From Longimicrobiales bacterium (GTDB lineage Bacteria > Gemmatimonadota > Gemmatimonadetes > Longimicrobiales > Gaopeijiaceae): 64,000 bases of DNA. Below the pieces are notes generated by a model, which was given only the letters and a program-made list of their open reading frames with translations, ran no database searches and was not told the origin of the DNA. Position 1 is the stretch's first letter; every line of letters starts with the position of its first letter. This document shows positions 31,121 to 53,322 of the stretch, piece by piece. The stretch spans positions 96,001-160,000 of the forward strand of contig CBDCNQ010000004.1 of assembly GCA_965219445.1 (NCBI GenBank), read 5' to 3'. A program made the translations under genes and the position numbers.

Positions 31121-32044
31121 CTAGTCTTCCAGCCGGGAGCCCGGCGTCGCATCCCCGTCCTCGAGACCGAGCGCCCACCGGATCCCGCCCACCACGTGGG
31201 CCCGAAAGGTCGGATTGGTACTCCAGATGTCGTCACGGTGGCCGAGCGCCGTATAAAATGAGCGACCATTGCCGAAATCCTGTACCCAGGACTGAGGATA
31301 GTCGCCGCCCTGCTCGATCTCCTCGAGCCCCTCGAGGTCCGTCGCACGCGTGTCGATGCTCAGCAGAACACGAACCCGATCCCGAGAGAAGCCCAGGGGA
31401 ATCCGGTTGCCGAACAGTACGTCGACGTTCTCATCGGGTCTGTCGGCGCTCCACGCCGCGGTGCCGAACTGATAGAACTCGTCGACCACGGTCCAGCTCC
31501 CGCCCAACATCCTTGTCGCCGGATGTTGGCGGTCTTCGACGTTCAGGACGAAGACGTGGTTCTGCTGCACCGCGCGCCTGAAGTACGCACCGAGCATCTC
31601 ACCGAAGTCGGGATAGTTGTAAAGCGTCAGCGCCGCGCAGTGAACGCCGATGAACGCACCCCCCTGCCTCACGAAGTCCACGAGCGCCCGCTTCTGCACC
31701 TCGTCGAGCGGCAGGTTTCCGTTGGTCATCATCATCACGCCATCGAACTGAGCGAGGTACTCCGCCGTGATGATCGACAAATCGAGCTCCTCGCGCTCCT
31801 GCAGGTAGCCCTGAAGGGCGGTAAGCTCGTAGCCGGCGTCCGGTCCCCATGATGCGACAGCCCGCTCCGCGGGACCGAGGCTCGTGTGCTTGTAGAGCCC
31901 CGCGTGGGTCAGGAAGAGAAGCTTCTTCGGCGTTTGTTGTTCCGGCGCGGCGACCCGACTCGGCTCTGTGACTCGGGCCCCCGACGACGAGACCAACCCG
32001 ACAGTGCAGATGGCGATCAGTCCGGCACTCATCGCAGCGCGCAT
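31121..32044 (-). CDS. Secreted ThuA-domain protein
   Basis: Signal peptide, YKHTS, GGAFIGVHCA, DEFY, GRSFYTALGH. Confidence 0.85.
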   Translation of the reverse strand: MRAAMSAGLIAICTVGLVSSSGARVTEPSRVAAPEQQTPKKLLFLTHAGLYKHTSLGPAERAVASWGPDAGYELTALQGYLQEREELDLSIITAEYLAQFDGVMMMTNGNLPLDEVQKRALVDFVRQGGAFIGVHCAALTLYNYPDFGEMLGAYFRRAVQQNHVFVLNVEDRQHPATRMLGGSWTVVDEFYQFGTAAWSADRPDENVDVLFGNRIPLGFSRDRVRVLLSIDTRATDLEGLEEIEQGGDYPQSWVQDFGNGRSFYTALGHRDDIWSTNPTFRAHVVGGIRWALGLEDGDATPGSRLED

Positions 32045-32163
32045 GAATTTCTCCTCGATTGGGCTCCGACGTGGACGACAACCGAGGTCTTAAGATGTGG
32101 AGTCGGGCGGGAAACGCCAGCACGAGAGGGGCTGAAGCGCTATCGGGGTCGTGGAGCCGTTCC

Positions 32164-32739
32164 TCAGCCCCCGGGGCCGGCCTCCTTCAGCGCGCCATAC
32201 CGGACCTGAAACGCCGCGGCTACCCTGGCGTCGGGCTGAATGTGGCCGCGCACCGTCCACCGGATGTCCGTGTAATCCTCCGGACTAGCGGGACGTTGCT
32301 CGGTTCGGCCGTCGACGACCACCTCGACCATGGGCTGTTCGGAGTAGGACGTGCCGCCGTCCAATGAGAACTCCACGTCGACATCTTCGCGGTCCGCGCC
32401 GGCCGTGCCTGGTAGGTAGTGCATGCCTTCCGGCAGAGGGTCGTTGAATTGGATGTTACTGACCGGACTTCCCGTGATATTGGTGAATACGAGCCGATAC
32501 TCCACCACATCTCCCGACACGATGGTATTGGGGTCTCGCTCCGGGGCGTCGACCGTCTGAGGGCGCGCGTCTCCCCATGTGAGGATCGTCGCCGAGACGA
32601 CCAAGGCCTGGGGCTCCCTCTCCTCCTGGGCCGCCGCGGATCCGCCCGCCAAGGCGAAAAGCATCGCGAGCCACAAGGCGCTCCGTAGGACCTTCAATCT
32701 TCCTCCTGAACGATTTCGGTGTTCGTCCGGCTTCGACAT
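32164..32739 (-). CDS. Small exported single-DUF11-domain protein
   Basis: Signal peptide (SAAA|Q); GDVVEYRLVFTN...NDPLPEGMHY...VEFSLDGG...YTDIRWT...FQVR. Confidence 0.85.
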   Translation of the reverse strand: MSKPDEHRNRSGGRLKVLRSALWLAMLFALAGGSAAAQEEREPQALVVSATILTWGDARPQTVDAPERDPNTIVSGDVVEYRLVFTNITGSPVSNIQFNDPLPEGMHYLPGTAGADREDVDVEFSLDGGTSYSEQPMVEVVVDGRTEQRPASPEDYTDIRWTVRGHIQPDARVAAAFQVRYGALKEAGPGG

Positions 32740-33259
32740 CGGGACGACTCCTGATCAACTGTTTCCACCCCAACCACCCCGAAAACTCAAGCCCGGTGAG
32801 GCCATTCTCCCGAGCCCACCCGGACCCCCGGGCTGCCTCTCGTACGTGAGGCAAGGTCCGTGCCCCACCCCACTCGTCGCTCGCCAGTAGGCACTGGAGG
32901 CCACTGACAACGCTCGCACGAAGCCGACGAACGTTCAATGGCGAGGCCCACCAAGGATGATCCAGACCCGGAAAATTTTTCCTCCTTCGGCCACAAAATG
33001 CCCACAGCACAATTTACCGATTTCTGTCCCTTAGGGCCCCAAAAAATGACGAATTTCGGGCCCTCCCGACCCCGTATAAGCGCCCCTCCTAAATTCGTGT
33101 AAATAGTTGTCAATAAACGTCTTAAGTAGACAAAAAACATATGGTTATAAGGTGTTCTCGGCTTTGGCACCTGAGCGGTCCACACCTTGCAAAAAAAAGG
33201 GCAACGACATTCACATGCGCCCGCGAGGAGGCGGGCGAACGACGGAGGAGAGAACGGAA
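32740..33259. promoter_or_regulatory. AT-rich divergent intergenic control region of the DUF11 locus
   Basis: 520-bp gap between divergent genes; visibly AT-rich at ~32970-33200 with several A-tracts; GGAGGAG RBS before 33260. Confidence 0.55.
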
Positions 33260-34506
33260 ATGAAAACGCACTCGAACCTGGCATCTCGAGTCTTGGGGAT
33301 GCTAGCGATAGTAGCGGCGGTCGGCTGGCTTCAGCCTACCGCGGTCTACGGCCAGACGGCCGAAGGCGTAGTCATCACCAACCGCGCCACGGTCACATTC
33401 ACCGACGCGAACAGCAACGCTTACTCGTCCGTGTTTGACGAGGTAGACGTGACGGTTGGCCACAGTGCCGGCATCGACGTGGTGGCGGCACAGGCCACGG
33501 CCACGCCGATCTCGCCGAGCGCAAACAACACGCTGGACTTCACGGTCAACAACATCGGAAACGGCCCCGACAGCGTGACCGTCGCCGAGAGCAACACGGA
33601 CCCCACGGTCCTGACGGTGACGAAGTACACCTACAACCTCACGGACTACGCGAGTCTCGCCTTGCTGAACACGGCGCTGGCGGGGGTCTCCATCGCAGCC
33701 GGAGGCAATGTGGCGATCACGGTCGAGTACTCCATCGCGGCGGGTAAGGGCGGCGAGCCGTCGACCTACACGCTGACGGGTACCTCGCGCCGCGACGGTA
33801 GCGCGACGGACAACGACAACACGGTCGTAACCCCAGCGCTCACGGGCACCGTGGTCACGACGCCGGACGGCGGGCAGAGCCTCACACATCTGCCGAGTAA
33901 CGGCACGAACTACACGTTCCAGTTCACCGTGACGAACAACCAGACCGGAGCGGAGCGGACGACTTCGACCTGCTCGCAACGAGCCCCGGCTCGGCGGTCA
34001 TCACCATCGTGTCGGTGGACGGGTTCGCGGGAGACAGCACCCGGGTGAACATCGCGGCGTCGGCTTCACCGACGTTCGACGTGATCTACTCCGTGGCCGA
34101 CGTGGCCGCCGGAACCCCCGACACGCTCTACCTGGAAGCCCGCTCCGTAACCACCCCGGCTACGACGGATTCCGGCTTCGCCGACATGTCGGTCATCAAG
34201 GCGGCCATGAGCATCACGAAGGCGGCGTACCGGGATAACCAGGTCACGCTCCTCGGCGGCGGCGACACCGTGCTGCCGGGTGAGTTCATCCAGTACCTAG
34301 TCACCGTCACGAACACCGGAACGGCCGACGCGTCCATCGTGCATGTGGACGACCTGTTACCGGCTGAGCTGACGTACGATTCAGCGACAGGGGACTTGGC
34401 GGGCTGGACCTTTACGCCGTCGGGCAACGACTTGGATGCCGATCTAGCCGGCACCCTCGCTCCCGCTGCCAGCCGATTCTTCTGGATCCGGGTGCAGGTG
34501 AACTAG
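33260..34506 (+). pseudogene. Secreted DUF11 protein (candidate major pilin), frameshifted by a 5-bp duplication
   Basis: Signal peptide, then QTAEGVVITNRATVTF. Removing one CGGAG at 33946-33955 joins ORFs 33107..34048 and 34009..34506 (QTGADDFDLL). C-terminal DUF11 reads ITKA...YLVTVTNTG...DDLLP. Confidence 0.85.
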
Positions 34507-34515
34507 CCAGTACCC

Positions 34516-37500
34516 ATGGAATTCCGTACTTACCTTCGTCGTTGCCTCAGGCAGGCCTCCCTGGACCTTCGGGTCCGGGGAGTCGCGTCCTGGGTGCGTT
34601 GGATCGCCGTCGCGGCGGTCCTTCTCGGCGGAGTCGTAGAAGTGCGCGCCACCGGCACACCCGCCGGTACTCTAGTTACCGCGCGCGCGTCTGTGTCCTA
34701 CACTGGTCCCAACGGCACCCCGGGGAACGTAATGTCTCCCGATGCCATGGTCATGATCGGCCAGGTCGCCGGTGTAGACGTAGAGCCTCCCCGCTCGAGC
34801 CTGGGAGCCGCCGGGACGAGCGTCATTTTCCCCCACACCCTCACCAACGTCGGAAACGGTTCCGACACTTTCGTCCTCACGGCCACGTCTCTCGACGGCT
34901 GGCCGATTCGTATGGTGCTAGACGTCAACGGCAGTGGCACCGAGGATGTGGGCGATACGCCCATCGTAGGGCCTGTCGCCCTGAACGCCGACGCAGTGGC
35001 TCAAATCCTGGTCGTCCTGGACATCCCCTTGGCGGCCCCGGTCAGGGCTCCGCAGCCCGCGGTAACTCTTACCGCCACGTCGCAATTCGACGCTGGTGTG
35101 ACCGACTCGCTGACCGACGACCTAGGGGTCACTCCGCCCGTCCCGACCGTAACGCTTAACAAGACCGTGGACGTCGCATCGGCGGTGGCCGGTGACATCC
35201 TCACCTACACCATCACGTATACAGCGTCGGCACTCGGTTCGAACGACCTCACGATCCAAGACACGATTCCCGCGGGGCTGAGCTACGAGGCCGGTACCCT
35301 GCGCTTGGATACACAGGCCCTCACGGACGTCTCCGGAGACGACGAGGGCCACTACGACCCCACGCCCGGCGTCATCGTCGTCACGGTCCCCGCCGCCGCT
35401 ATCCAGCCAGTGGACAGCGTCTCCTTCCAGGTGCGCGTTCTTCCGGTGCGCACCAGTACCATGATGCAGAACATGGCCGTCGCATCCTCCGGGACCGCCA
35501 GCGACGTCTCGAACGTTTCGCAGACGCTCATCGTCGGCCCCGACCTCACGCTGGAGAAGACGGTTCAAGGGCCCAACCCTGCCCGATCCGGCGACCAGCT
35601 CGTCTACCGCGTCGCGCTGACGAACGATGCCAGCGGCGGACTCGCCGAAGCCGCGCTCGTCACGGACACAGTTCCCGCGGGATTGGAAATCGTGGACGCA
35701 GGGCCGGGCGCCACCGTAGACGGTAACGTGGTCACGTGGGCCTTCGGCGACGTCAACGCCGCCGAGCAGGTCGAGGCTTCGCTCCAGGTGCAGGTCGCTG
35801 CGACCATCCCAGATACCCTTTCGGTGGTGAACGTGGCCAACCTGTCTCTGATGGGACAGCCCCACATGGCGGCGTCCGCCCCTTCGGTCCTTCTGTTGGG
35901 CACTGCGGGAGATATCCTGGCTCTCGACCTCCGCGGTGAGACGCTCGAAGCTCAGCTAGGCGAACCGGTCTACCTCAGCTTCACAGTGGAGAACCGGAGC
36001 AACCTGAACGTCACCGATGTCGGGGTGAGGATCGACATCCCCAGCGGCCTGGCTTTCTCGAGGTCTCTCCAGGAGGTGGACTCGATTCAGACCCAGCCCG
36101 GGCAGGTCACTCTGTATCTCGGGCCCCTCGCCGCAGGCGGCACCCTGGAGGGCCAAGCAGCCTTCGCGCTCGTATCCGCGCTCCCGGGCACCATGGTCAT
36201 CTCGGCGATGGCGTTTGGCCACGTCGGGTCCGTGGCGATGAGCGGCCCGGCACCGCTGGTGGCCGCCCTCACAAGCGGCACGACACCCGTGGGCGCCACG
36301 GCTGCCCTCTCGCACGGCGGCTCTCCGGCCGGTTTCGACGTCCGCTCCGCCCAGCAGCAGATCTTCGTGGGCATCCGGGCAGGCACGCCCCTCGAGACCA
36401 GGACGGTCATCGGGAAGATTTGGATCGACGAGGACGGAAACGGCCGACAGGACGGCGGCGAGCTCGGCGTGCACGGAGTGGCCGTCTGGAACGAATCCGG
36501 GGACGTGTCCTCGTCGGACAGCGAAGGGAAGCTGTCGTTCCGGAACGTGAGGCCAGGAGCCCACACCTTCCGGGTGGATCGCTCGACCCTACCCGTGGCG
36601 CTGCGCGTGAACCCCGAGGGCGACGACGGATTCGCGTCGCTCCATTTAAACGGATGGGCTTCGGGTCGGATTTCCTTCGGGCTGGTCCCTCGGGGTGCAA
36701 GACTCGTGGACTTCCAGGTCCAAACCGAGGATGAGGCCGCCAGCGGGGTCATGAGGCTGGCGGACTACCAGCTCGAGACCGAGAGCGCAGCCACCAATGC
36801 CGGGCTCTCTAGCCTCGAAGCGCCCGCCCCCGACGCCATCGTGCAGAGTGAGCTGGTGTTGGAGCCCCACCGAGCTGGTTGGCCCGAGGTGGCCTATCCG
36901 ATCCCGGAGGGCTGGCTTCCGCTACCCGCCTCGGCTCGCCTGGGCGACACGCCTGTCGACGACCCCGAAATTCGCGTGGACCGGGACGGCTCCGCCTGGA
37001 TGTTCTGGACGCTGGACGGCCTCCGTGAGCCCCTCCACGTGACGTTGGAGCCGGAGAGCGCGGTGCGGAGCGCGGAGACCGTGACGCTCCCGGCCCTCCG
37101 CTCCGCCGAGGACCGGTCCAGGGACGGTGGCTCAGGGATCATCACTGGCCCCGGAGTTGCGCTGATCGCGCCTGTCGACGGCGCCGTGCTGGGCAGTGAC
37201 CGCGTCTACGTTGGCGCACTTGGTGAGCCCGGCGCCCAGGCCACCCTTTTCTCGGGTGATTCCATCCTGGCGGAGAGCGTGATCCGGATAGACGGCCAGG
37301 TGGACTTCATCGGCGTCGGACTGCAGCGTGGGACCAACCGCCTCCGGGTACGCATGGTCAACTCCTGGAACCTCGAGCGGTGGGACAGCCTGGACGTCCA
37401 CGTGACGAGCGTCCCCGCGTCCTTCGCGCCCGTGGCCGACACGATCGCTCTCCCGGCGGACGGCGTCACCATTCGGGAGACGAGAGTCCGCGTCCTGGAC

Positions 37501-40158
37501 GCCTGGGATGTCCCTGTGGTCAACAGCCCGTTCGTCACCGTGTCCACCGGACTGGCCGAAGTGGTCGATCTCGACAAAGACCCCTCCTCGGTCGGCCGGC
37601 AGCTTCTGCCCGCCTCCGACGGATGGCTGACCATCCGGATCCGCGCCAGCTCCGAGGTCTCCTTGGACGTACTGGCCCTCCAGGCCGGCGAGGCAACCGG
37701 AGAAGTGGCCCTTCAACACGTACCGAAGGCAAGGGAGCTCATGATCACCAGCATGGGGCAGTACGGCCTGGGCGCCGCACCGGACGACTTCGGTGCCATC
37801 ACCGTGCGGGGGCGCCTGGGCGCAGAGACTGGCGTGACTCTCTCCTACGACAGTCGCGCTCTGGACGCCGGGCGCGACGCGTACGGCAGGACGATCAGCC
37901 CGCTGGACGAGGCCCAGTATCCGATCCTCGGCGACGCCTCCGTGCGCCGGAGCGAGGCAGACATGCGGCCCGGCCTCTCCGCCCGCATCGAGCGTGGAAC
38001 GGACTGGATCGCCGCCGGTGAGTTGGCGAACATGGGATTCGGTACCAGCCTCACGCTGGCCCAATACCGCCGGGCCCTCCCCGGCGTGGCGGCAAACGTC
38101 CGCACGGGTCCCGTGACCTGGAGCGGGTTTGGTGCCATGACCTCCCAGAGCCTCCGCCAGGTCCAGATCCGCGGTGCCGGCATCTCCGGCCCGTACGACT
38201 TGGGCACGGGCATCGTGCCGGGTACGGAGCGGGTCAGCGTGGAGACCCGAGCCTTGGACAATCCGGAACGCAGCCTCCGGCTCCAGACCCTCCAGCAACT
38301 CGCGGACTACCAGATCGACTACGCGACGGGCACTCTGCTCCTCAAGACCCCGGTGCCCTCGGTGGACCTGAACAACAATCCGATCTTCCTCGTCGTGGAC
38401 TTCGAGTCGGACGGGGGCGGCAAGTCGCAGTCCGTGTGGGGTCTTCGCGCCGAGACCGACTTCGGGATCCCTCTGGGGCTCTCGGTCGTGCAGGACAGAG
38501 CCGAAGGCCAGACCTTCGGAATGCTGGGCGCAGACGTGCGGGTTCGCGCGCCGAACGGGTCCGAGCTGGCCGCCGAGGTGGCCTACACCGAAAACCCCGA
38601 CTCGGCGGGGGTGGCCTTCCTCATGTCCGGCCAGGGGAACCTATTGGGCGGCGCGGTGGGACTGACAGGCCAGTGGATGCATGTGGCCAACCGATTCAGT
38701 AATCCATCGAATATCGGGCTGCAGGCCGTCGACGAGTTCGAGGTGGGGACCCAACTGCGGGCCGCCGGCAACGAGCTCCAAGTGGGCCACAGCCGCCAGA
38801 GGTTCGCGGCAAGCGGAATCGAGCGGCGCACCACGGATGCGCGGGTCGTCAGCTCCCCCGTCATGGGAGTCTCACTCACCGCGGGCTTCACCGACCAGGC
38901 CGTCTCCAACGGCAACGTGCTCGGTGGGGCGTCGCGGGCCGGACGCTTGGAGCTCGCATGGCAGCCAACCTCCAGGGTCCGGCTCTGGTCGGAAGCCCAA
39001 AACTCATTCCTCCAGGATCCGGGCGCGGGCCTCGGAGATTTCATCGGTGGCGGAGCGTCCTTGGCCTTGCTCGAACAGTTCTCGCTGGAGGGCCGCCATC
39101 TGCGAATGCAGGGTGACCCTAACGGCGATTACTCCATCACGCGCTTCGGCCTGCAGTCCCGCTTGGAGCGTGGGACCCGGGCCTGGGGCTCGTACGAGAT
39201 CGCGGGTGGCGTGGACCATCAGACCAACGCCGCGGTCGTGGGTCTCAATCAGCAGATACGCCTGGGGCAGTCCTGGACCGTCAACGCTATGATGGAGCGC
39301 CGTGTGGGCCTCGAACGGGCCGCGCTCTCCGATCCGCTCCGGGCCGCCCCCTTCACCCAGCAGGAGGAGGACTACTGGTCGGCCGGACTGAACCTCGAGC
39401 TTCTCCCTCAGGACGGTCCCTACAGCGCGAGCGCCCAGCTGGAGCGAAGGACCGGAGCGGTGCGCTCCAGCGACCTGGCGAACTTGGCGGCGGACATCAC
39501 GTTCAACCGCAGCCTGGCGATCCTTTCCCGGGGAACCTACAACCGTGTCCAGGACGTAAGCACCGGCCTGCCGACGCAGCGGACCGCTTCAGGCCTCTTC
39601 GGCCTGGCCCTCCGACCCGCGGGCAATGATGCGGTGAATGCCCTCCTGAAGCTGGAGTGGCAGCGGGACGAAAATCGGCCCCAGCAGAACGTCTTTGGGA
39701 GGATGGGCTTGGAGTCTCGGCTCATCGGGGCCGCAGAGGTCATCCTGAGTCCGCTGGCGAGAGTCGAGCTGGGAGGCCGATACGCCGTGCGAAGCACCAA
39801 CTTCGTCGTCGGTGCCCAGGCCCCGCTCACCTCCCTCGCTCATTACGTGGGCTCCCGAGCCAATCTGGGACTCACGTCCTGGCTCGGCGTCGGGGGAGAA
39901 GGCCGGCTCCTAGTAGAAGGTACCAGCGGCGAGATGCGGTGGGACGTCGCTCCTGTCATGAAGCTCACCCCTGTAAACGAGTTAGAGATCGCCGGCGGGT
40001 ACCGCTTCGGCGACCTGCTCGACCCCGACTTCGCCTCCAACGGAGGCCAGGGCTGGTTCGTCACCTTCCAACTTCGCGTCACCGAGGACAACCCGATCGT
40101 GGACTACTGGCGGAATCGGATGCGCTCGACGATGGCGAGGCGAGGAGATACACCATGA
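34516..40158 (+). CDS. Large DUF11-repeat protein with an SdrD-B-like domain and a long C-terminal predicted outer-membrane beta-barrel
   Basis: Signal peptide; two clear DUF11 domains; GKIWIDEDGNGRQDGGE; ~800 C-terminal aa of amphipathic beta strands ending GWFVTFQLRV. Confidence 0.8.
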   Translation: MEFRTYLRRCLRQASLDLRVRGVASWVRWIAVAAVLLGGVVEVRATGTPAGTLVTARASVSYTGPNGTPGNVMSPDAMVMIGQVAGVDVEPPRSSLGAAGTSVIFPHTLTNVGNGSDTFVLTATSLDGWPIRMVLDVNGSGTEDVGDTPIVGPVALNADAVAQILVVLDIPLAAPVRAPQPAVTLTATSQFDAGVTDSLTDDLGVTPPVPTVTLNKTVDVASAVAGDILTYTITYTASALGSNDLTIQDTIPAGLSYEAGTLRLDTQALTDVSGDDEGHYDPTPGVIVVTVPAAAIQPVDSVSFQVRVLPVRTSTMMQNMAVASSGTASDVSNVSQTLIVGPDLTLEKTVQGPNPARSGDQLVYRVALTNDASGGLAEAALVTDTVPAGLEIVDAGPGATVDGNVVTWAFGDVNAAEQVEASLQVQVAATIPDTLSVVNVANLSLMGQPHMAASAPSVLLLGTAGDILALDLRGETLEAQLGEPVYLSFTVENRSNLNVTDVGVRIDIPSGLAFSRSLQEVDSIQTQPGQVTLYLGPLAAGGTLEGQAAFALVSALPGTMVISAMAFGHVGSVAMSGPAPLVAALTSGTTPVGATAALSHGGSPAGFDVRSAQQQIFVGIRAGTPLETRTVIGKIWIDEDGNGRQDGGELGVHGVAVWNESGDVSSSDSEGKLSFRNVRPGAHTFRVDRSTLPVALRVNPEGDDGFASLHLNGWASGRISFGLVPRGARLVDFQVQTEDEAASGVMRLADYQLETESAATNAGLSSLEAPAPDAIVQSELVLEPHRAGWPEVAYPIPEGWLPLPASARLGDTPVDDPEIRVDRDGSAWMFWTLDGLREPLHVTLEPESAVRSAETVTLPALRSAEDRSRDGGSGIITGPGVALIAPVDGAVLGSDRVYVGALGEPGAQATLFSGDSILAESVIRIDGQVDFIGVGLQRGTNRLRVRMVNSWNLERWDSLDVHVTSVPASFAPVADTIALPADGVTIRETRVRVLDAWDVPVVNSPFVTVSTGLAEVVDLDKDPSSVGRQLLPASDGWLTIRIRASSEVSLDVLALQAGEATGEVALQHVPKARELMITSMGQYGLGAAPDDFGAITVRGRLGAETGVTLSYDSRALDAGRDAYGRTISPLDEAQYPILGDASVRRSEADMRPGLSARIERGTDWIAAGELANMGFGTSLTLAQYRRALPGVAANVRTGPVTWSGFGAMTSQSLRQVQIRGAGISGPYDLGTGIVPGTERVSVETRALDNPERSLRLQTLQQLADYQIDYATGTLLLKTPVPSVDLNNNPIFLVVDFESDGGGKSQSVWGLRAETDFGIPLGLSVVQDRAEGQTFGMLGADVRVRAPNGSELAAEVAYTENPDSAGVAFLMSGQGNLLGGAVGLTGQWMHVANRFSNPSNIGLQAVDEFEVGTQLRAAGNELQVGHSRQRFAASGIERRTTDARVVSSPVMGVSLTAGFTDQAVSNGNVLGGASRAGRLELAWQPTSRVRLWSEAQNSFLQDPGAGLGDFIGGGASLALLEQFSLEGRHLRMQGDPNGDYSITRFGLQSRLERGTRAWGSYEIAGGVDHQTNAAVVGLNQQIRLGQSWTVNAMMERRVGLERAALSDPLRAAPFTQQEEDYWSAGLNLELLPQDGPYSASAQLERRTGAVRSSDLANLAADITFNRSLAILSRGTYNRVQDVSTGLPTQRTASGLFGLALRPAGNDAVNALLKLEWQRDENRPQQNVFGRMGLESRLIGAAEVILSPLARVELGGRYAVRSTNFVVGAQAPLTSLAHYVGSRANLGLTSWLGVGGEGRLLVEGTSGEMRWDVAPVMKLTPVNELEIAGGYRFGDLLDPDFASNGGQGWFVTFQLRVTEDNPIVDYWRNRMRSTMARRGDTP

Positions 40159-43100
40159 GTCGCCTCCGCCTTGCACTCGCGCACCTGAGCGCGAGCACGC
40201 TGTTCTGGAGCCACGCCCTCGTAGTGGCGGCCGGCATCTTGGTTCCTGCGAAGCCCGCACAGGCGCAGAGCCCTGAGAATCGCTTCGCGGGTGCCGGCGT
40301 CAGTGAGGGTGCCGAGGAGATGCCCTGGATCCTCCCAGGCAACATAACCGCTGATGATGGCGCCGAAGCCACCATCTCGAATTATGACTCCGACGAATTC
40401 GAGAGGACGCTTCGGTCCCACACCTACGGCTTCACGATCCCGGGCGGCGCGACGATCGACGGGATCGAGGTGATCGTTGGACGACGAAACAACAATAGCC
40501 CCGGGGTGGCCGATAACGTCATTCGACTGGCCAAGGCAGGAGTTGCTGTCGGTGCTAACAAATCTACCGGCGTCGTATGGCCCACGGTGGAGGCACCCAT
40601 TACGTATGGTACCCCAACCGATCTTTGGGGCACGACCTGGACACCGGCCGAGATCAACGCCGGCGGATTCGGTCTCACGCTCAATCCGCTCAACACCGGT
40701 AATGCCGAAAACGCAGCGGTCGATTACCACCGGATCATCGTTTACTACACCACTGCCGAAACGATCCTCCTGGTGGTACCGGACGCGGCGAGCCTGGGCG
40801 CGCAGGACGCCGCGAAGAAGACGTTGATCGAATCCTGGGGCTACACCGTTACGCCAATCTCGGCAAACGACACTCAGGCCAACTTCGACGCCGCCGTGGC
40901 AGCTTCTGACGCCGTCTATGTCTCCGAAGAGATCTCCTCCGCCGACCTAAACACGAAGCTCACATCAGCGACGATCGGGCTCGTCCTCGAAGAGGGCTCT
41001 CTCTCGGATGAGTTCGGGTTTTCGACGGGCAAGCTGAACTACACAGACTCTGCGATCGACATTACGGACAACACCCATTACATCACCTCAGCCTTCAGCA
41101 CGGGATCGCTGACCATCGCGTCCCCGGCTCAGGACCTCCACTACCTCGACGGGACGATCGCTGCAGGTGCGCACGTCCTCGCAGAGCAGCTCGCCACAGC
41201 GAATAGGACACTGGTCGTGCTTGACGTCGGTGCGGCGCTGGAGCCTGCGGGTACGGCCGCAGGACGTCGCGTCATCTTACCGTGGGGTCCTGATGCATTC
41301 GATATCAACTCGCTCACCGTCGACGGGCAGACCTTGATGCGCAGGGCTATCGAGTGGGCGACAGGATTGGGAACAGATTCGACGCCGCCGGACGCCGTTG
41401 CGAACCTTGCCACCGGAACGGTGACGGCGTCCTCCATTGACCTGTCCTAGACGGCCCCCGGCGACGACGGAGCCACCGGGACCGCGACCACCTACGACGT
41501 TCGTTACTCCACGAGCACGATCACCGCGGGCAACTGGGCCTCAGCCACGCAGGCGAGCGGAGAGCCGGCGCCGTCGGTAGCAGGCAGCGCCGAGACGTTC
41601 ACCGTGACGGGGCTCAGCGCGAGCACTACCTACTTCTTTGCGATCAAGACCTCGGACGAGATCCCGAACGAGAGCGTGATCTCTAACGTGCCGAGCGCCG
41701 CGACCGCGTCGCCCGCCACGTTGCTGGCCCGATACTGGATGGAAGAGGCGTCGAGCGGTCAGGCGCCAACACAGTTGCTCGACGACCAGGCGAGCCCCTT
41801 GAACCTGCCCATCACCTATGACGGGGCGAACTACAGCTACACGGTCCTCCCCACAGGACGGGGTTGGGAGTCGACGACCACAAACAACGACGGGCGGGCA
41901 TCTACGTTGGTTAACGGTACAAAGCTTCAAACGACCCTCGATGGCGCCACGGCGACCACTATCGAGGTCGTGTTGGCGATTGATGCCCTTAGCACTAGTC
42001 AGAGTCGCATCTTCCACATCGGCGATGGCTCGGAGTCCGGCTACCTGACCCTTTCATCCCCCAATGCAACTACACTCTTCTTCTACGCGCTTGGGACAAC
42101 TCTCCGAGGCCAATGGAACCCGGGATTCGATGGAACTCGAGCAGTATTCCATTTGGTTTACGACTCCGCGGAGCCGACGGCCGGGGACCGAGTGCGGCTG
42201 TACAAGAACGGCGTGCTCCAAGCCTCGACCGGTGGGACCGATCCGCCGCTGAACGAGACGATCAGCATCCCCAATGGCAAGTACTTCGCCATTGCGAACC
42301 GTGAGGTCGGCGTCCGGTCGTTCGATGGGAGCATCTACTATGCGGCCGTCTACGACGGCGCCCTCACAGCCTCGGAAGTCTCGACTAACTCCACCGCCCT
42401 GCTGGCCAGCGACGACAGCGGACTTGATTCTACACCGCCGGACGCGATCACAGACCTCGCCACCGGAACAGTGAGGTCGACGAGCCAGCAGTTGAGCTGG
42501 ACCGCGCCCGGCGACGACGCAGCCACCGGGACCGCGACCAGCTACGATATCCGCTACTCGACGAGCACGATCACCGAGGGCAACTGGGCCGCCGCCACGC
42601 AAGCGACCGGAGAGCCTTCGCCGCAGGTCGCGGGCAGCAGCGAGACGTTCACGGTCACGGGGCTGAGCGGCAGCACCACGTACTTTTTCGCGATCAAGAC
42701 CTCGGACGAAGTCCCGAACGAATCAGCGATCTCAAACGTGCCGAGCGCCACGACAGACCTGGACGGTATGACGCAGACCGGCTTCGCCTGGTCGGACGAC
42801 GTAGCGACCTTCACATCGAAGGGTGATGACGTGACGTTGGATGCGGCACAAGGGACGACCTACATCGTCGGGATCCAGGTTGCGATGACCCAGGGGGCCG
42901 CCAGCAATAGTTGGGTGCTCCAGGTGCGCGAAGACGGCGCGGGCTCGTGGCTCGACGTGTTCCAGCTGGGCGGCGGCGAGAGTCAGGTGTGGGAGACGGA
43001 TTCGTCCCACAACTTCAGCAAGGGGAACGGTGACGTCGTCTCGACCGGAGAATTCGGCAACGGCACGGCCCCCACGTACTTCACGGCTGTCGACGGTGAG

Positions 43101-46100
43101 TTCTCGGACGACAACAACGGCCTCGGCGACGGCTACACCGGCCCCGACGTCTACACTGAGCTCCAGTATGCTGTGAGGGCTTCGGGCTTGAGCGACGGCC
43201 ACACCTACGAGTTCAGGGTAACGTACAACGGGTCACCGCTGGACCTGTACAGCACGTACGCGACCGTCGCCGATCCGGGCACGCCGGACGCTGTCTCGGA
43301 CCTCGCCACCGGAACGCTCACCTCGTCGAGCGTACAGCTGACCTGGACCGCACCCGGAGACAACGGGGCCACCGGGACCGCGTCCACCTATGACGTCCGC
43401 TACTCCACGAGCGTCATCAACGACGGTAACTGGGCCTCCGCCACGCAGGCGACCGGAGAGCCTGCGCCGCAGGTCGGGGGCAGTGCCGAGACGTTTACCG
43501 TCACGGGGCTCAACTCGAGCACCACGTATTACTTCGCGATCAAGACCTCGGACGAGGTCCCGAACGAGTCAGCGCTCTCCAACGTTCCGAGCGCCACGAC
43601 GTTGAACGGCGCGCCGACAGTGGTTGCGGCGATCGCGGACACCTCGGTGGTCGAGGACAACCCACCGGTCGACAACTATCGCGATCTAAAGGCTGTGTTC
43701 ACCGACTTCGAGGATGGCTCGGCGCTCACCTTCACGATCCAGACCAACACCAATCCGGGTCTGGTCACGCCGACCATCGGCGCCGACAGCGCCTTGGATC
43801 TGAGCTTCACCGCCAGTCTCAATGGTGCGGCAACGATCACCGTCCGCGCCACCGATAGTGGCGCGCTGTTCGTGGACGATGTCTTCACGGTCACCGTCCT
43901 GGATACGACGCCGCCAGATGCCGTCGCGGACCTAGCCACCGGAACGGTGACAGCGTCGAGCGTGGACCTGTCCTGGACTGCGCCTGGAGACGACGGGGCC
44001 ACCGGCACCGCGACCACGTACGACGTCCGGTACTCGACGAGCGTAATCAACGACGGCAACTGGGCCTCGGCCACGCAGGCAACGGGAGAGCCCGCCCCGC
44101 AGGTTGCGGGTAGCTCGGAGACATTCACGGTCACGGGGCTCAACTCGACCACGACCTACTACTTCGCGATCAAGACGTCGGACGAGGTTCCGAACGAATC
44201 AGCGCTCTCCAACGTGCCGAGCGCCACGACACTGAACGGCCCGCCGACGGTAGCCGCGGCGATCGCAGACACAACCGTGAATGGGGACAACCCCCCCGTC
44301 GACAACTATCGCGATCTCAAGGCCGTGTTCACTGACTTCGAGGATGGCTCGGCGCTCACCTACACGATCCAGGGCAACACCAATCCGGGCCTGATCACGC
44401 CGACCATCGGTGCCGACAGCGCCCTTGATCTGAGTTTCACCGCCGGCATCAACGGTGCCGCAACGATCACGGTCCGGGCCACCGACAGCGGTGCCCTGTT
44501 CGTGGATGATGTCTTCACGGTCACGGTACTGGATACGCATGCGCCGGAGGCCATCACCAATCTTGCCACCGGATCGGTCTCGTCGTCGAGTGTGCAGCTC
44601 ACCTGGACCGCTCCCGGAGACGATGGAGCCACCGGGACGGCGACGACCTATGACGTCCGCTACTCGACGAGCACGATCACGGAGGGCAACTGGGCCTCCG
44701 CCACGCAGGCGAGCGGAGAGCCTTCGCCCCAGGCCGCGGGCAGCGGTGAGTCGTTCACGGTGACGGGGCTCAGCCAGGGCACCACATACCATTTCGCGAT
44801 CAAGACTTCGGACGAGGTCCCGAACCAGAGCGCGATCTCCAACGTGCCGAGCGTCGCGACGATCGTCTCGGCCAGCGTGACGTACCAGACGGGCGACGGT
44901 AAGGGGAGTGTCTCCGAGGCCGACGATGCGAAGCTCATCGATGGTGGGTCTGCGGACACGAACTATGGCACTACGACCGACCTGGAGATTGATTCAGGCG
45001 ATAAACACAGTGTCATAAAGTTCCCCAATATTTTCGGTGGCGGCGCCGACCAGATCCCCCTGAACTCCGTGATCGTCAGCGCCACGTTGACCCTGCAAGT
45101 GTTCGACCAGGGAGACGATCCTCTGGTGTACCAGCTCATAGAGGGTTGGGTGGAGAGCCAGGTCACCTACAACGACCGAATCACCGGCGTGGGTTGGTCG
45201 AACCCGGGCGCCGGCGGAACGGGCTCGCACAAAGCGACAGCCGATGGCAGCCTGCCGGCAGGATCGACGGGCAGCAGAAGCGTCGACGTGAGCACCAGCG
45301 TACAGAACTGGTCCGATGGAGAGGTGAATGAGGGGTGGGTGCTCGAGGACACGGGTTCCGGTGGCGTGGACATTCGGACGAGTGAGTATGCAACCGTTGC
45401 TCAACGGCCCATGCTCTCGGTGACTTACCTCCCGGGTGGTGACCAGACGGCGCCGAACACCGTTACGAACCTAGCCACCGGAACCGTGACGGCGACGACC
45501 GTGGACTTGTCGTGGACCGCGCCCGGCGACGATGGAGCCAGCGGGACGGCGACCAGCTACGACATTCGCTACTCGACGAGCACGATCACCGAGGGCAACT
45601 GGGCCTCTGCCACGCAGGCGACCGGAGAGCCTTCGCCGCAGGTCGCGGGCAGCGCCGAGGGGTTCACGGTTACGGGCCTGAGCAGCGACATCACGTACTA
45701 CTTCGCGATCAAGACCTCGGACGAGATCCCTAACGAATCAGCGATCTCGAACGTGCCGAGCGCGGCGACACCGGACGTCACGGCGCCCGACGCCATCACG
45801 GACTTGGCTACCGGGACGGTGACGACGTCGAGCGTGGACCTGTCCTGGACCGCACCTGGAGACGACGGGGCCACCGGGACGGCGACCACCTACGACGTCC
45901 GCTACTCCACGAGCACGATCAACGACGGCAACTGGGCGTCCGCGACGCTGGCCACAGGTGAGCCAGCACCGCAGGCCGCGGGAAGCAGTGAGTCGTTCAC
46001 GGTCACGGGGCTCAGCGCGAGCACTACGTACTTCTTCGCGATCAAGACCTCGGACGAGGTCCCGAACGAATCAGCGCTCTCCAACGTGCCGAGCGCCGCG

Positions 46101-48713
46101 ACGTCCTCGAACATCCCCACCTTCGCAAGTGGAGGTCAGAAGTTACACGTCGGCCAGCCGCCGGTCCCCATCAGGCTGATGACCATTACCGACGCGACGG
46201 GAGCGGGCACGTTCACCGACGCCAACGACCTGCGGATCCGGATCCCTGCCACGTTCAACATGATCTGGGACACGTTGGACGTCGACGCGACAATCGGCGG
46301 CGGCGCCAGCGCCAAGGTGAGCTCTACGGTGAGCTACGAGGATGCCGGAAAGACGCTGGTCCCGAATGTGCTGACCGACTTCCTGGCCTCAGAGCAGTTC
46401 ACCGTCGCGGATCTGAGCTTCATGTCCTTCACGGCAGTCTCGGCGGCAGACAAGCTGGAGCTCGAGGTCTATAACGACGACGTGGTCACGACCGAGGATA
46501 CCGCCAACAAGGAGATCATCGTCGGCCCCAGCATCTCATCTCGCACCAACCAGACCTTCATGGTGAGCGATCCGGCGACGCTCGCGGACACGATCACCAT
46601 TACCGAGTCTCCGACGGATCCGGTGATAACGACGGGCGACGACATCCGTATTCGCATTCCCACGGGCTTCAACATGGTCTGGGATGCTACGGTCACGAGC
46701 GTCACCCTCGGCGGAGGTGCAGCGGGTAACGTGAGCACGACGCTGCTGCCTTACGAGGATGGGAACAAGACTGCGGTGCTTGATGTCACAGGCAACTTTG
46801 CAGTAAGCGATGTAATCACAGTCGTCGGTCTGACCTTCACGACCTTCAGCGGCGTCTCCGCAGCCGACAGCTTGGAGTTGGAGCTCGAGGACGACGGCGT
46901 GGTCTCGGCCGAAGATGACAAGACGATCGAGATCATCCCGCTCAATACGACCCCCACGGTGGCGGCGGCCATCCCCGACACTACGGTGGCTGAGAATAGC
47001 TCGCCGATCGATAACTATCGCGATCTCAACGCGGTGTTTACGGACGTGGAGGACCTCTCACAGCTCACGTACACGATCCAAAGCAACACGAATCCCGGCC
47101 TGATCACGCCGACCATCGACGCCGACAGCGCCTTGGATCTGAGCTTCACCGCCAGCACAACGGGTAGCGCGACGATCACAGTGCGAGCCACAGACAGCGG
47201 TGCATTGTTCGTGGACGATGTCTTCACGGTGTCAGTCAGCGCCCCCGCGGCATTGGTGGGTCGCTACTGGTTGAACGAAGCACCCTCCGGGCAAGTGCCC
47301 ACCACGGTGTACGACGATCAAGCGAGCCCCCTCAATCTCAGTGTGACCTACGACGCGAACATGGCATGGACCCTGAACAACGGCCATCGTGGGCTAACGT
47401 CCTCGGTCGTGCACGCGGGGATCGCCTCGGCGAACGCGGCAGGCACGAAGTACGTGACCAATCTTGACGGAGCGACCCAGGCCACGTTCGTCACGGTGAT
47501 GGAGTGGGGTGCCGGAAACGCCGACCGTATGGCCGGTTTCCAGGAGAGCGACGGCACCCGCGTTTTCCAGTTGATGACCAAGAGCGGCGGCGACATAGAG
47601 TTGCGATATCGTGCCCAAGTGGAGTACACGAGGATGTATTGGCCGGGCACGTGGGACGATGGCGTGCGGCGTGTCTTCCACGCCGTCTACGATTCCGACG
47701 ATGCCACCCTGAACGATCGGGTCCGGCTGTATGTGAACGGTGTCGATCAGGGGACGCCGACCCTCATTAGCGGCAACATGCCCCCGGTTTCTGATGGGCT
47801 GGACTTCGGCGCCGCGACGGTCGAGCTGGCGGTAATGAACGAGTCGGACCTCAGCAACGGCCTCCCGGGCAGCGTCTTCTACTACGCCGTCCATACCGGG
47901 GAAATGACCGACGGGGAAATCTCCACCGAGGCCACCGCGCTTCTGGCCGACGACGACAACATCACCTATACCGTCGCCGTCACGCCCGATGGGGTCGATA
48001 CGCTGAAGGTGCTCCCGAGCAACGGAACTTCATATTCCTACAAGCTCACGATCGACAACACCTCGAGCGTGATCGAGGACTTCGGCCTTTTCGGCTTCCC
48101 CGGCGACGTGTCCACCTTCCTCACCGTCGACTCGATCGTCGGGCCTAGCGTTACCGCAGGGGCGACCGCAGACAGCGCGTCGATCGCGGGCATCCCCGCC
48201 AGTACCGTTGACAGCGCGTTCGTGTGGTACAGCGTGGCCAACGTCGCAGCCGGTACTCTGGACTCTCTGTACGTCGAGGCCCGCTCGTTTAGCAGTAGCG
48301 CCGTGGCTGACACGGGTTGGGTTTTCATAGAGGTCGTGAAGCCCAACCTCACCGTTGGTAAGGCCGTCACTCCGAACGGCACGCAGCTGCCGGGCACCGA
48401 CCTGACCTACACCGTCACCATTACCAACGACGGCACCGATGACGCCGCCAGCGTGGTCGTGCTGGACTCGGTGCCGGCAGAGCTCGACTTCAAGGTGGGC
48501 AGCGTCGTGAACAGCCTACCGGTCACGGCCACGGTGGAGTATTCGAACGACGCGGGCAGCTCGTGGACCTATGTACCGGTATCGGCGGGGTGCGGGGCGC
48601 CTGCGACCTACGACGCGTGCGTGACCCACATTCGCTGGACGCTGGACACACACCTCAGCTATGTGGGGCCGAACAACACGGGTGACGTCGAGTTCGTGGC
48701 TCGAATCCAGTAG
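40155..48713 (+). CDS. Giant (~2850-codon) multidomain surface adhesin with one in-frame TAG at 41448-41450
   Basis: ATGA overlap with the upstream gene; signal peptide; 7 FN3 repeats, 2 LamG-like, 3 cadherin-like, a DNRLRE-like domain and a C-terminal DUF11. The frame continues past the stop (DLS*TAPGDDG). Confidence 0.82.
41377..46103 (+). repeat. Seven highly similar ~330-bp fibronectin type III coding repeats
   Basis: WTAPGD[DN]..TGTA..YD.RYSTS...YFAIKTSDE.PN starting near 41377, 42426, 43281, 43902, 44532, 45441 and 45774. Confidence 0.92.
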
Positions 48714-49214: not shown

Positions 49215-50225
49215 ATGGTTCGCAAGACGCCATCTGCGGGCGTGCTACTCGCCTGTCTGTTGACGACGGCGCCCGTTTCGGCCCAAACGTCCACGTGGAC
49301 GTCCGAACGTCCCGACGGGCATGCCCCGGCCGGGGTCATGTCCGACTTTCTCGTCTTGAATCGTCGGCTCTACGCCGGCGTGCGCCTCTACCAGGAGCGG
49401 TTCAGGGGTACGAGCCTCGGTACTGAGCCCCTCTCGTCCGACGAAGTTCTGGACTTCTTTTCCGTCGCTCCTCTGAGCCTCGACAAGAACACGGCCGAAG
49501 TGGAGCTCCGGCTCGGCCTGTTCGGCTTTGTGACGGCGGCGGCCTCGCTACCAGTTACTCGCTCCGAGATGCTCAACACCGACGACGCGGTCTTCTTCGA
49601 GACGTCCTCCGAGGTCCTGGGCGATGTCAGCGTTCGAGCGCTCTTCGATGTCTTGGAGATGGACGAGTACCGGGTGAGTTTGAACCTCGGTAGCACGATT
49701 CCGACGGGTAAGATCAAGAAGCGCGACACGACCCCCTTCGCGGTCAGGGGGATACTTCCCTACGCCATGCAGGGTGGCTCCGGAACGTTCGACATCTTGG
49801 CGGGCATGACCTTCCTGACCCAGAACGAGGTCGCTTCGGTCGGCGCCCAGGTCAACGGGGTCATACGGGTGGAGGACAACCGGCGGGGCTATCGCCTCGG
49901 GGATCGATTCAGCTTCTCGGTGTGGGGCGCCCACAACCTTTCGGATTGGATGAGCGTATCGCTTCGCGGTTTCTACGAGACGTGGGGTGACGTTACAGGA
50001 TCCGAGCCGGGAACGGACGGCACATTCGATCCGAGCGCCAACTCCTTTGCACAAGGAGGGGAGCGAGTGCAGATCCCCATTGGCGTCAACTTCTTCCTCC
50101 GGGAAGGACGCTTCGCACGCCACCGGCTCATGGCCGAGTGGTACTACCCGGTCCACCAGGACCTAAACGGCCCTCAGGTAACGGCCGACCGGACCCTAGT
50201 GGTCTCCTGGCAAACCTTCTTCTGA
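49215..50225 (+). CDS. Outer-membrane beta-barrel 'transporter' (MetA-pathway/phenol-degradation-like family)
   Basis: Signal peptide, RPDGHAPAGVM, LGDVSV, IPTG, LPYAMQGGSGTFD, C-terminal Phe. Confidence 0.75.
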   Translation: MVRKTPSAGVLLACLLTTAPVSAQTSTWTSERPDGHAPAGVMSDFLVLNRRLYAGVRLYQERFRGTSLGTEPLSSDEVLDFFSVAPLSLDKNTAEVELRLGLFGFVTAAASLPVTRSEMLNTDDAVFFETSSEVLGDVSVRALFDVLEMDEYRVSLNLGSTIPTGKIKKRDTTPFAVRGILPYAMQGGSGTFDILAGMTFLTQNEVASVGAQVNGVIRVEDNRRGYRLGDRFSFSVWGAHNLSDWMSVSLRGFYETWGDVTGSEPGTDGTFDPSANSFAQGGERVQIPIGVNFFLREGRFARHRLMAEWYYPVHQDLNGPQVTADRTLVVSWQTFF

Positions 50226-51850: not shown

Positions 51851-52912
51851 TCATGACGGCACCGGGTTTCCAACCGACGCCACCGGTTCGCCGTCCCACA
51901 CCCCGTGGCGGATCCCATCCTTCCCAGAGCGCTTCACCGCGTACATCGCTACGTCCGCTACCTGGAGCGCCTCTCGGCTCGTGTCGACCGGCGCCTCGAA
52001 TGTCACGGCCCCGATGCTGAACGTCACCGGCCACCCACCTTTCTCCATCGCCCGGGTGAGTTGCTTACGCAGGTTGTCGAGCACCGATCCGGTGGCACCA
52101 CCCCTGATTTCCGGGAGGACCGCCGCGAATTCGTCTCCGCCCAGGCGCCCGATGATGTCCGTCTGCCGCGTGCTCGACCGGAGTGCATCCGCGACTCGGC
52201 AGAGGAGCTCATCGCCCACGTCGTGTCCCTCCAAATCGTTGACCGCTTTGAAATTGTCGAGGTCTATGTAGGCCAGCGTGAACGCCCGACCGTAGCGCGC
52301 AGCCAGGGCCAACTCGGCGTCGAGCTGTACCATGAATGACCCTCGATTCGGGAGCCCCGTCAGCGTATCCGTTGCCACGAAGGCCGCTTCGTCGGATAGC
52401 CGACGCTTCAGCGTGGCGAACAGCGTGGCGATGATCGCGAGAAGTACGAAGTTCGAAGAAACGCTCCAGATGACCGCCCAACCGACTGGCTCGCCCGCAA
52501 GCACCGAGAACGGCGTGGGAAGCACCGCCGCCACGGCGGCCAGGATGTAGGCAGTTGGGGGCGCGGCCCCCCACGCAGCGAGCGCGATCGGAACGGCATA
52601 CAGGACGAGCAACGCGGTTTCGAGGCCCAACGACGCCTCGGCCGTAGCCACCGCAACGACGAGACCAAACGCCACCCAACCGGCGGCCTTTTGAGGCCAG
52701 ATTGCCACGAAGGCGGCGAGCCTGGCCGTGATCCGGCGGGCCCTGTCGGAGGGCTTCCTGGCCGGGGCGTCCTCGACATCGGCACCCCGCCGCAGCCAAG
52801 CCCGCCGACCCGTGGTCAAGGAGTGCCTCGCTCCAGACCCATGCGGCCCACGCCGGCCATCTCCCTCGCTAGCAGATGAACCTCCGTCAGCTTCCACTGT
52901 GCCCGTGCGCAC
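51851..52912 (-). CDS. Membrane-bound diguanylate cyclase (true start probably inside this ORF, near 52800)
   Basis: TM helices; TDTLTGLPNR, DLDNFKAVND, RQTD I-site, RLGGDEF. Confidence 0.88.
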   Translation of the reverse strand: MRTGTVEADGGSSASEGDGRRGPHGSGARHSLTTGRRAWLRRGADVEDAPARKPSDRARRITARLAAFVAIWPQKAAGWVAFGLVVAVATAEASLGLETALLVLYAVPIALAAWGAAPPTAYILAAVAAVLPTPFSVLAGEPVGWAVIWSVSSNFVLLAIIATLFATLKRRLSDEAAFVATDTLTGLPNRGSFMVQLDAELALAARYGRAFTLAYIDLDNFKAVNDLEGHDVGDELLCRVADALRSSTRQTDIIGRLGGDEFAAVLPEIRGGATGSVLDNLRKQLTRAMEKGGWPVTFSIGAVTFEAPVDTSREALQVADVAMYAVKRSGKDGIRHGVWDGEPVASVGNPVPS

Positions 52913-53322
52913 ATAACCGCAAGTACCATCAGAAGGAGGTTGCCCGTGATCAGCCCGAGGCCCCCGCTGCCTCCAACCCGGAAGAGAAAGACGACCCGGG
53001 TCACGACCACGTATCCCGCGAAGAGTAGTGGCACGAAGCTGCCCGCGAAGATCAATCGGCCCCAGCGGCTGGGCTTTTCCAGGACTCTCGAGACCGCCTG
53101 CAGCCCGTAGGCGACCATCGCCACCATCGAGAGCACTGCGCCAATCATGAACACCACGTGCTCGGAGAGTTGGAATCCCTGCCGAATGGACTGCACCAGG
53201 CCGTATAACCCCAGGACCACCAACGGCGGGAGGCCCACCGCAATCTTGGCCGCCGCCATGCGCTCAACCGCTTGGGCCACGAGAGATACGGGGTCACCGT
53301 CCTCGGGGGGTTCATTCGCCAT
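52816..53322 (-). CDS. Hypothetical 4-TM membrane protein
   Basis: ATG-initiated ORF with four hydrophobic segments, co-oriented with its neighbours. Confidence 0.65.
   Translation of the reverse strand: MANEPPEDGDPVSLVAQAVERMAAAKIAVGLPPLVVLGLYGLVQSIRQGFQLSEHVVFMIGAVLSMVAMVAYGLQAVSRVLEKPSRWGRLIFAGSFVPLLFAGYVVVTRVVFLFRVGGSGGLGLITGNLLLMVLAVMCARAQWKLTEVHLLAREMAGVGRMGLERGTP

Follow-up and report, generated by a model that had tools for sequence, protein, structure and literature searches.

Four DUF11/CLIPPER genes of a Longimicrobiales bacterium as a candidate locus for a self-locking surface fibre

What could be assembled from four neighbouring genes whose products share a DUF11 domain, when two of these domains stop before their last strands? 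We addressed this question for a locus (positions 32164-48713) in a stretch of 64,000 nucleotides (nt) from a Longimicrobiales bacterium (assembly GCA_965219445.1, contig CBDCNQ010000004.1, positions 96,001 to 160,000 of the forward strand; hereafter the window), a two-membrane bacterium whose relatives with names belong to the Gemmatimonadota. A preliminary description, made from the letters alone, had read the locus as a donor-strand pilus with a shaft protein carrying donor and acceptor, a tip adhesin carrying only an acceptor, and a barrel protein at the base carrying only a donor. Our analysis suggests that the shaft and the adhesin each end in a truncated domain (the socket), which would be completed by a two-strand hairpin (the plug) of another protein, and that these parts probably build a head-to-tail surface fibre, in the order adhesin, n shafts, and barrel protein, whose joints would be locked between lysine (Lys) and asparagine (Asn). 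DUF11 (PF01345) has been renamed CLIPPER; its CnaA-like fold has nine strands, a bond between Lys715 and Asn806, and Asp748 as the presumed catalyst (PDB 9IFR), and it has been described from the stalks of fibrillar adhesins, as complete repeats with an intramolecular bond (PMC12617251).

A CLIPPER domain divided between proteins

The shaft gene (33260-34506, plus strand) is frameshifted in the source strain, and the analysis used intact relatives, among them P0001 (413 amino acids, aa), which shares 78% and 83% identity with the two shaft pieces. The protein comprises a signal peptide, a donor hairpin (33353-33466, plus strand; residues 32-69 with Asn41, corresponding to the two final strands of an intact CLIPPER repeat), two immunoglobulin (Ig) domains, D1 and D2, and a truncated CLIPPER socket (34201-34506, plus strand; Lys319 and Asp363 in P0001 numbering). 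The AlphaFold2 (AF2) model of P0001 (predicted local distance difference test, pLDDT, 90) has this same layout, with hairpin strands at residues 38-45 and 58-65 and seven strands in the last domain, which superimposes on 9IFR with Z 10.2 and a root-mean-square deviation (rmsd) of 1.9 over 91 aligned residues. D1 (model residues 67-194) resembles TTHA1873 of Thermus thermophilus (7WRK, a hypothetical protein; Z 10.6, rmsd 2.8, 119 aligned); other Ig folds score about equally. No useful match was obtained when the shaft was searched by sequence against solved structures, and Foldseek returned only generic Ig arrays, which says nothing on fold novelty. In the ESM Atlas, all matches were to DUF11 or unnamed clusters, which are leads rather than evidence.

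Truncation of the C-terminal domains, as the preliminary description had claimed, is evident from the coverage of the Pfam model: of its 114 positions, the shaft match spans 11-84 and the adhesin match 2-71, while the barrel protein is nearly complete at 1-95. These three proteins pass the Pfam cut-off for PF01345, and the fourth, small protein passes only that of TIGR01451 (E-value 5e-11). Shaft and adhesin end in IRVQVN and FVARIQ, respectively, without the strand that bears the Asn, and both end points are fixed: four residues past the R409 column in 100/100 shaft homologues, and two residues past the last Arg column in 43/43 adhesin tails, the latter being open reading frames (ORFs) chosen for a match reaching near the stop codon. 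The shaft set (A1) holds 100 of 120 listed homologues and omits 4 long fusions, 2 proteins of ~450 aa, and 14 near-duplicates. Within a single domain, the full motif of Lys, aspartate (Asp), and Asn occurs only in the two internal CLIPPER domains of the barrel protein (K216-D249-N319 and K348-D384-N439), a pair that found 9IFR by sequence (E 0.003), with K216 and D249 aligned to its Lys and Asp.

Is the hairpin at the start of the shaft the missing end of the socket? A profile built from shaft residues 32-70 gave 114 matches, in 10 of 101 giant repeat proteins, where matches inside one protein are not independent. All but one of them (113/114) lie at most 15 residues from a projected socket end, whereas 500 random draws gave 20.8 on average and 34 at most; with an earlier, narrower distance limit, 78/114 lay beside a socket against a random maximum of 27. 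Every aligned match in the giant proteins has Asn at the N41 column, and intact repeats read from the socket end into a T-x-x-x-T...N-x-A-T...D-A-N-G-N hairpin that is the same as the shaft N-terminus. Seven giant tandem CLIPPER proteins with such a shaft-like hairpin at the repeat end (P0240, P0254, P0257, P0273, P0277, P0325, and P0355) are candidates for the intact ancestor type.

The barrel protein supplies a second line of evidence. In relative G083, a 313-aa adaptor resembles residues 25-308 of the window's barrel protein (42%), and its end coincides exactly with that of the socket; the next gene opens with an Asn hairpin, the alignment resuming at barrel residue 325. At loci L007, L048, L064, L082, and L141, the gene after the adaptor likewise opens with an Asn hairpin and carries the alignment on, and this split form (an adaptor of ~310 aa) was found in 4 of 12 complete loci and in nine further ones. 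Because one barrel-protein domain thus lies on a single chain in the window and is divided over two genes in relatives, completion in trans is required there, and we consider it highly probable that the hairpin plug of one protein completes the socket of another. The preliminary description had proposed that the N-terminal segment completes the domain of the next subunit; completion in trans is supported, with a hairpin of two strands as the donor instead of a single strand. The resemblances from which it had started are also borne out: the N-terminal half of the shaft matches the barrel-protein N-terminus (23% identity over 203 aa, pairwise E 1e-12), and its C-terminal part matches the adhesin C-terminus (42% over 141 aa, E 2e-23; E 3e-9 for the TPDG...LPSNGT piece).

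From plug and socket to a putative fibre

The joint between two shafts was modelled with two copies of P0001 residues 32-413, and a head-to-tail arrangement was obtained in two of three runs (scores 0.72, 0.01, and 0.71; median 0.71), whereas three controls reached 0.00 at best; the mark for this score was reached by 20/30 solved pairs and 1/23 single chains. The interface is one-way, with residues 32-69 of copy 2 placed into residues 312-413 of copy 1, strand 359-363 paired with 43-47, residues 41, 319, and 363 all within the interface, and a partner pLDDT of at least 87. This model supports an open head-to-tail shaft chain with one free plug and one free socket left for growth, although its passing the mark may mirror likeness to complete CnaA-like domains. 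Taken together, the adjacency of hairpin and socket, the one- and two-gene forms, the dimer model, and the co-occurrence of the genes (below) support both completion in trans and the shaft, tip, and anchor roles that had been proposed.

Conservation in the shafts points to a covalent joint. Lys319 is retained in 100/100 homologues, Asp363 in 97/100, and Asn41 in 96/100, with all three present in 93/100, even though Lys and Asp sit in the C-terminal socket and Asn in the N-terminal hairpin, i.e., at opposite ends of the chain. A self-formed covalent Lys-Asn lock at each joint is, on this pattern, quite probable. The divided isopeptide domain, the hairpin as donor, a small socket protein without Lys, and a locus that appears broken go beyond the preliminary description.

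The tip adhesin (40155-48713, plus strand; 2852 codons) has Fn3 repeats, LamG-like domains, D2, and a socket, the last two (a D2-like domain and a truncated CLIPPER socket) forming a docking module (47964-48713, plus strand). It carries no donor hairpin, and scoring adhesin ORFs with the donor profile gave no match. Adhesins range from ~370 to >2800 aa with a constant tail, whose socket retains Asp in 41/43. Two loci, L126 (G051) and L145 (G172), each hold two different socket-ended adhesins, which suggests exchangeable tips. At the usual place of the adhesin, two other loci have a second 402-aa protein with a shaft-type socket (L091:878-2083 and L093:246-1451).

The small DUF11/CLIPPER socket gene (32164-32739, minus strand) encodes a secreted protein of 191 aa (signal peptide judged by eye) without the isopeptide Lys. 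Among 64 homologues, the first-strand Lys is present in one, and Asp is present in 20 and replaced by Asn in 44. Since Lys is absent in nearly all of them, this protein cannot lock covalently, and it is likely a reversible periplasmic chaperone or cap for donor hairpins.

The anchor/barrel protein (34516-40158, plus strand; 1880 aa) starts with a donor hairpin (34654-34767, plus strand), in which Ala stands where the shaft has Asn, followed by D1, the two CLIPPER domains, an SdrD_B-like domain, further domains, and a C-terminal, predicted very large outer-membrane beta-barrel (37741-40083, plus strand). An AF2 model of residues 1076-1880 (pLDDT 77, predicted template modelling score 0.71) has 42 strands of at least 7 residues, 39 of them outside an inserted beta domain (model residues 150-228), and the true number of barrel strands is likely even, ~38-40. 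Fold searches returned only generic barrels (Foldseek query template modelling score, TM, at most 0.26), from which fold novelty is not implied; FimD matched with Z 14.1 (rmsd 5.5, 310 aligned), tied with porins, and SprA, the translocon of type IX secretion (6h3i), only as a generic barrel (TM 0.21; Z 10.0, rmsd 12.2, 478 aligned). An OmpA domain was found in 29 of 120 listed barrel homologues, and its motif lies between stalk and barrel in 25/26 of those examined. Because of this position, the linker should be periplasmic and the chain would need to cross the pore to reach the surface, which is why we call the barrel an exporter; on balance, the OmpA position leads us to favour export of the fibre through it. 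A barrel hairpin without Asn fits an exchangeable placeholder, and one with Asn fits a permanent stop. In P0013 and P0017, the N-terminal half of a shaft (hairpin, D1, and D2) is fused to a barrel stalk, so that the anchor has a plug of the shaft type, Asn included; P0026 and P0038 are apparent run-on fusions.

Combining these parts, we propose the following assembly. Sec export and signal cleavage would expose the hairpin, and the small Lys-less socket would reversibly sheathe periplasmic hairpins, as the inverse of a PapD chaperone. The adhesin, having a socket only, would start the chain and end up as its tip, while shafts would join at the base. At each addition, a bond would form between the Asn of the incoming plug and the Lys of the socket already in place, and Asp would catalyse it, as in CLIPPER. 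The plug of the barrel protein would capture the last socket, and this hold would be reversible in loci whose plug has no Asn and a permanent stop in the others. The chain would exit through the giant barrel, whose periplasmic part would often be tied to the wall by the OmpA domain.

Alternatives and known fibre systems

Several observations weigh against this reading. The 9IFR match of the shaft socket is tied with several other Ig folds (Z 10-11), and 39 is an odd strand count, from a model with pLDDT 77. One of the three dimer runs scored 0.01, contact agreement across runs was at least 0%, the pair K319-N41 is absent among the 25 contact pairs listed for the dimer model, and the modelling covered the shaft-shaft joint only. 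In the monomer model, the hairpin already has a pLDDT of 85-93. Lys is missing in 7/43 adhesin sockets, and the barrel hairpin has Asn in only 21/49 relatives, a set that mixes fused barrels and free adaptors. Finally, the small gene stands alone within the retrieved stretch in 2/14 loci (L137, in G005:C1 near 3258000, and L148, a second copy in G280:C23), and two of the four genes (shaft and adhesin) are broken in the source strain.

How long would the chain be? The same split domains could serve a fibrillar adhesin made in a few segments, i.e., an adhesin, one or a few spacers, and an anchor. Such a short, fixed chain would agree with an assembly that reads from N- to C-terminus like one CLIPPER fibrillar adhesin, with the natural fusions in P0013 and P0017 and an adaptor that may be fused or free, and with the 9-nt gap between the shaft and barrel genes, which is too small for a terminator. 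The shaft, however, leaves both its plug and a matching socket free, nothing obvious halts their repetition, and in Gemmatimonadota the shaft (~410 aa) is the most length-conserved gene of the locus. We regard the short chain as unlikely, and a long surface fibre as the probable product.

A fibre held by strand complementation only, with Lys, Asp, and Asn kept for folding and no bond between chains, appears more doubtful still. Some CLIPPER domains are indeed bondless (PMC12617251), and both the many barrel hairpins without Asn and the missing K319-N41 contact would suit it, but near-invariance of the three residues at opposite ends of the shaft speaks against it, as does BsaA, which makes such a bond across donor and acceptor (10.1101/2024.11.04.621531). 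Because the hairpin is so confidently placed in the monomer, closure within one shaft chain (a circularly permuted monomer) also has to be considered, as does a polymer forming a periplasmic envelope scaffold below the barrel; the dimer run without a confident interface and the OmpA domains, which place part of the N-terminal region of the barrel protein in the periplasm, agree with one or the other, but the partners conserved beside the shaft, with a socket only or a plug only, depend on another chain, the N-terminal regions of adhesins range from ~370 to >2800 aa and carry Fn3/LamG-like domains as surface adhesins do, and we judge both very improbable.

If the locus makes a fibre, does it belong to a described kind? 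As the preliminary description had observed for the classical genes, a family scan of the locus proteins and 12 neighbouring ORFs detected no usher, PapD chaperone, sortase, or gingipain. Type V pili consist of lipoprotein pilins that are processed by a gingipain-type protease and donate a C-terminal strand; here the donor lies at the N-terminus, which in the shaft lacks a Cys, and a gingipain-type protease is absent from the scanned ORFs (the genome was not searched for a distant copy). In contrast to sortase-assembled pili, shaft and adhesin end at the last strand of the socket without an LPxTG sorting tail, and no sortase occurs among the scanned ORFs of the locus and its neighbours.

The closest likeness in plan is to chaperone-usher pili, which share an acceptor-only tip, a donor-plus-acceptor shaft, a donor-only base, a periplasmic helper, and an outer-membrane barrel (PMC13721041); one of their defining traits is seen here, by sequence and model only. 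The locus differs in donating a hairpin rather than one strand, in its multi-domain CLIPPER subunits, in a predicted barrel of ~39 strands versus 24, in a base donor that is part of the barrel protein, in a helper that is a socket and not a strand donor, and in the predicted covalent lock. The usher family PF00577 had no match in the 92%-complete genome (E. coli control positive) and none in the barrel protein, and no PapD-like chaperone was found in the locus proteins or the 12 neighbouring ORFs, the rest of the genome not having been searched for PapD.

In chemistry, the nearest relative is BsaA of Clostridium perfringens (TasA family), in which donor-strand exchange is followed by a spontaneous intermolecular Asn-Lys bond (10.1101/2024.11.04.621531). 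As in BsaA, a donor Asn, an acceptor Lys, and a catalytic acid are kept across subunits (93/100 shafts), but the acid is Asp here instead of Glu, and BsaA has a TasA-like fold, a SipW peptidase, a monoderm host, and no barrel; no match to the TasA family or to the peptidase was found in the locus proteins or neighbours. DUF families and CnaA are unmentioned in the BsaA report. Donor-strand filaments independent of chaperone and usher are also known as the archaeal thread Saci_0406 (PMC9715654), tafi (PMC11821415), and TLP-1 fibrils (PMC11494351). They are archaeal or of unknown origin, with single-domain or non-DUF11 subunits and no outer-membrane barrel, and were set aside as belonging to other families; "DUF11" in the text of the tafi paper is DUF1102 (PMC11821415). 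The Saci_0406 thread has a cap subunit without acceptor site, and an intermolecular isopeptide bond has been proposed for it (PMC9715654), which would join an N-terminal amine to Asn, from n to n+2. With CLIPPER itself, the locus shares the family and the Lys-Asp-Asn triad, while the nine strands of the domain are here distributed 7 + 2 over different proteins; the main text of the CLIPPER paper (PMC12617251, supplements aside) contains neither "donor" nor "operon".

The locus is thus of the donor-strand fibre kind, built from parts of no described pilus family, and falls outside the chaperone-usher, BsaA, type V, and sortase criteria. A literature search, largely outside subscription papers and supplements, found no published description of it. 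Whether it represents an unnamed and widespread class of diderm pilus, an enzyme-free covalent polymer of split CLIPPER domains with a ~38-40-strand exporter, an Asn-less placeholder, and an inverse, donor-capping chaperone, is in our judgement evenly balanced. If so, two-membrane bacteria of at least 4 phyla would make covalent fibres without sortase and export them through a giant barrel, which would be among the largest known and whose family has no close solved relative. A common cluster of "hypothetical/DUF11" genes would gain a function, a repeat adhesin would have become a polymer by the splitting of one domain, and natural self-locking plug-and-socket pairs, thermostable ones included, would be at hand.

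Gene neighbourhoods and the copy in the source strain

Gene neighbourhoods were surveyed for the same donor/acceptor pattern. Loci were picked by the small gene from 13 of 22 other genomes with a strong match (by flank length) and from G039, and 12 of the 14 hold the shaft, a socket-ended adhesin, and a hairpin-led barrel together with it, one being cut by a contig end; the donor/acceptor pattern of the preliminary description thus recurs as four roles side by side. G005, which carries one of the two lone small genes, is a one-contig genome without a shaft match. Around the shaft (n = 7), the barrel and small genes were present in 7/7 loci and the adhesin within the stretch in 4/7. The small gene was matched in 25 of 301 genomes of the phylum (23 strongly) and the full shaft in 8 of 60 relatives, a patchy distribution that would be expected of an accessory surface system.

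Beyond the Gemmatimonadota, clusters assigned by motif and profile only are present on plasmids of Thermus brockianus, T. thermophilus HB8, Deinococcus ficus, the two cyanobacteria Synechococcus NIES-970 and Kovacikia minuta, and Acinetobacter haemolyticus. They contain a small Lys-less protein, a shaft with an Asn hairpin at its start and a Lys/Asp socket at its end, and a barrel gene, and the hairpin-led anchor is often a separate gene. Socket-ended adhesins occur in the HB8, D. ficus, and Acinetobacter clusters, and HB8 has five open genes with matching ends, on pTT27 (TTH_RS10905-10925, with RS10910 as the shaft and RS10920 as the barrel gene). On the A. haemolyticus plasmid p4 (L131:8453-11287), the shaft gene is in several pieces, and the barrel, OmpA, and adhesin genes are whole.

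Is the locus active in the source strain? A 5-nt tandem duplication (33946-33956, plus strand) shifts the reading frame of the shaft gene, and an in-frame TAG (41448-41450, plus strand) interrupts the adhesin gene at codon 432, where six sister repeats have TGG. Sequencing error as their origin was ruled out in a check of four runs, all of one study and as contigs only (depth 3-5): a contig from X1, a run that may be of the source sample itself, equals 32000-41612 with 0 differences, and second-sample contigs repeat the letters of the duplication (X4, covering 33745-34262, 0 differences) and of the TAG (X3, covering 41294-41503, 0 differences). Read-through of the TAG was set aside, as the shaft gene also terminates with TAG. 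Because both lesions recur in the second-sample contigs, this copy of the locus, with its shaft frameshift and adhesin stop, is likely inactive in the source strain.

Some neighbouring genes may also be mentioned. In three relatives, a gene with a Fis-type tail (judged by eye) lies just upstream of the adhesin (L002:4052-5596, L003:601-2010, and L006:4023-5690), which we presume to be akin to sigma-54 response regulators. In the window, the adhesin is directly followed by a 336-aa secreted, barrel-like protein (49215-50225, plus strand; judged by eye) without a Pfam match, and a GGDEF diguanylate cyclase (51851-53263, minus strand) is located 3 kb downstream of the locus.

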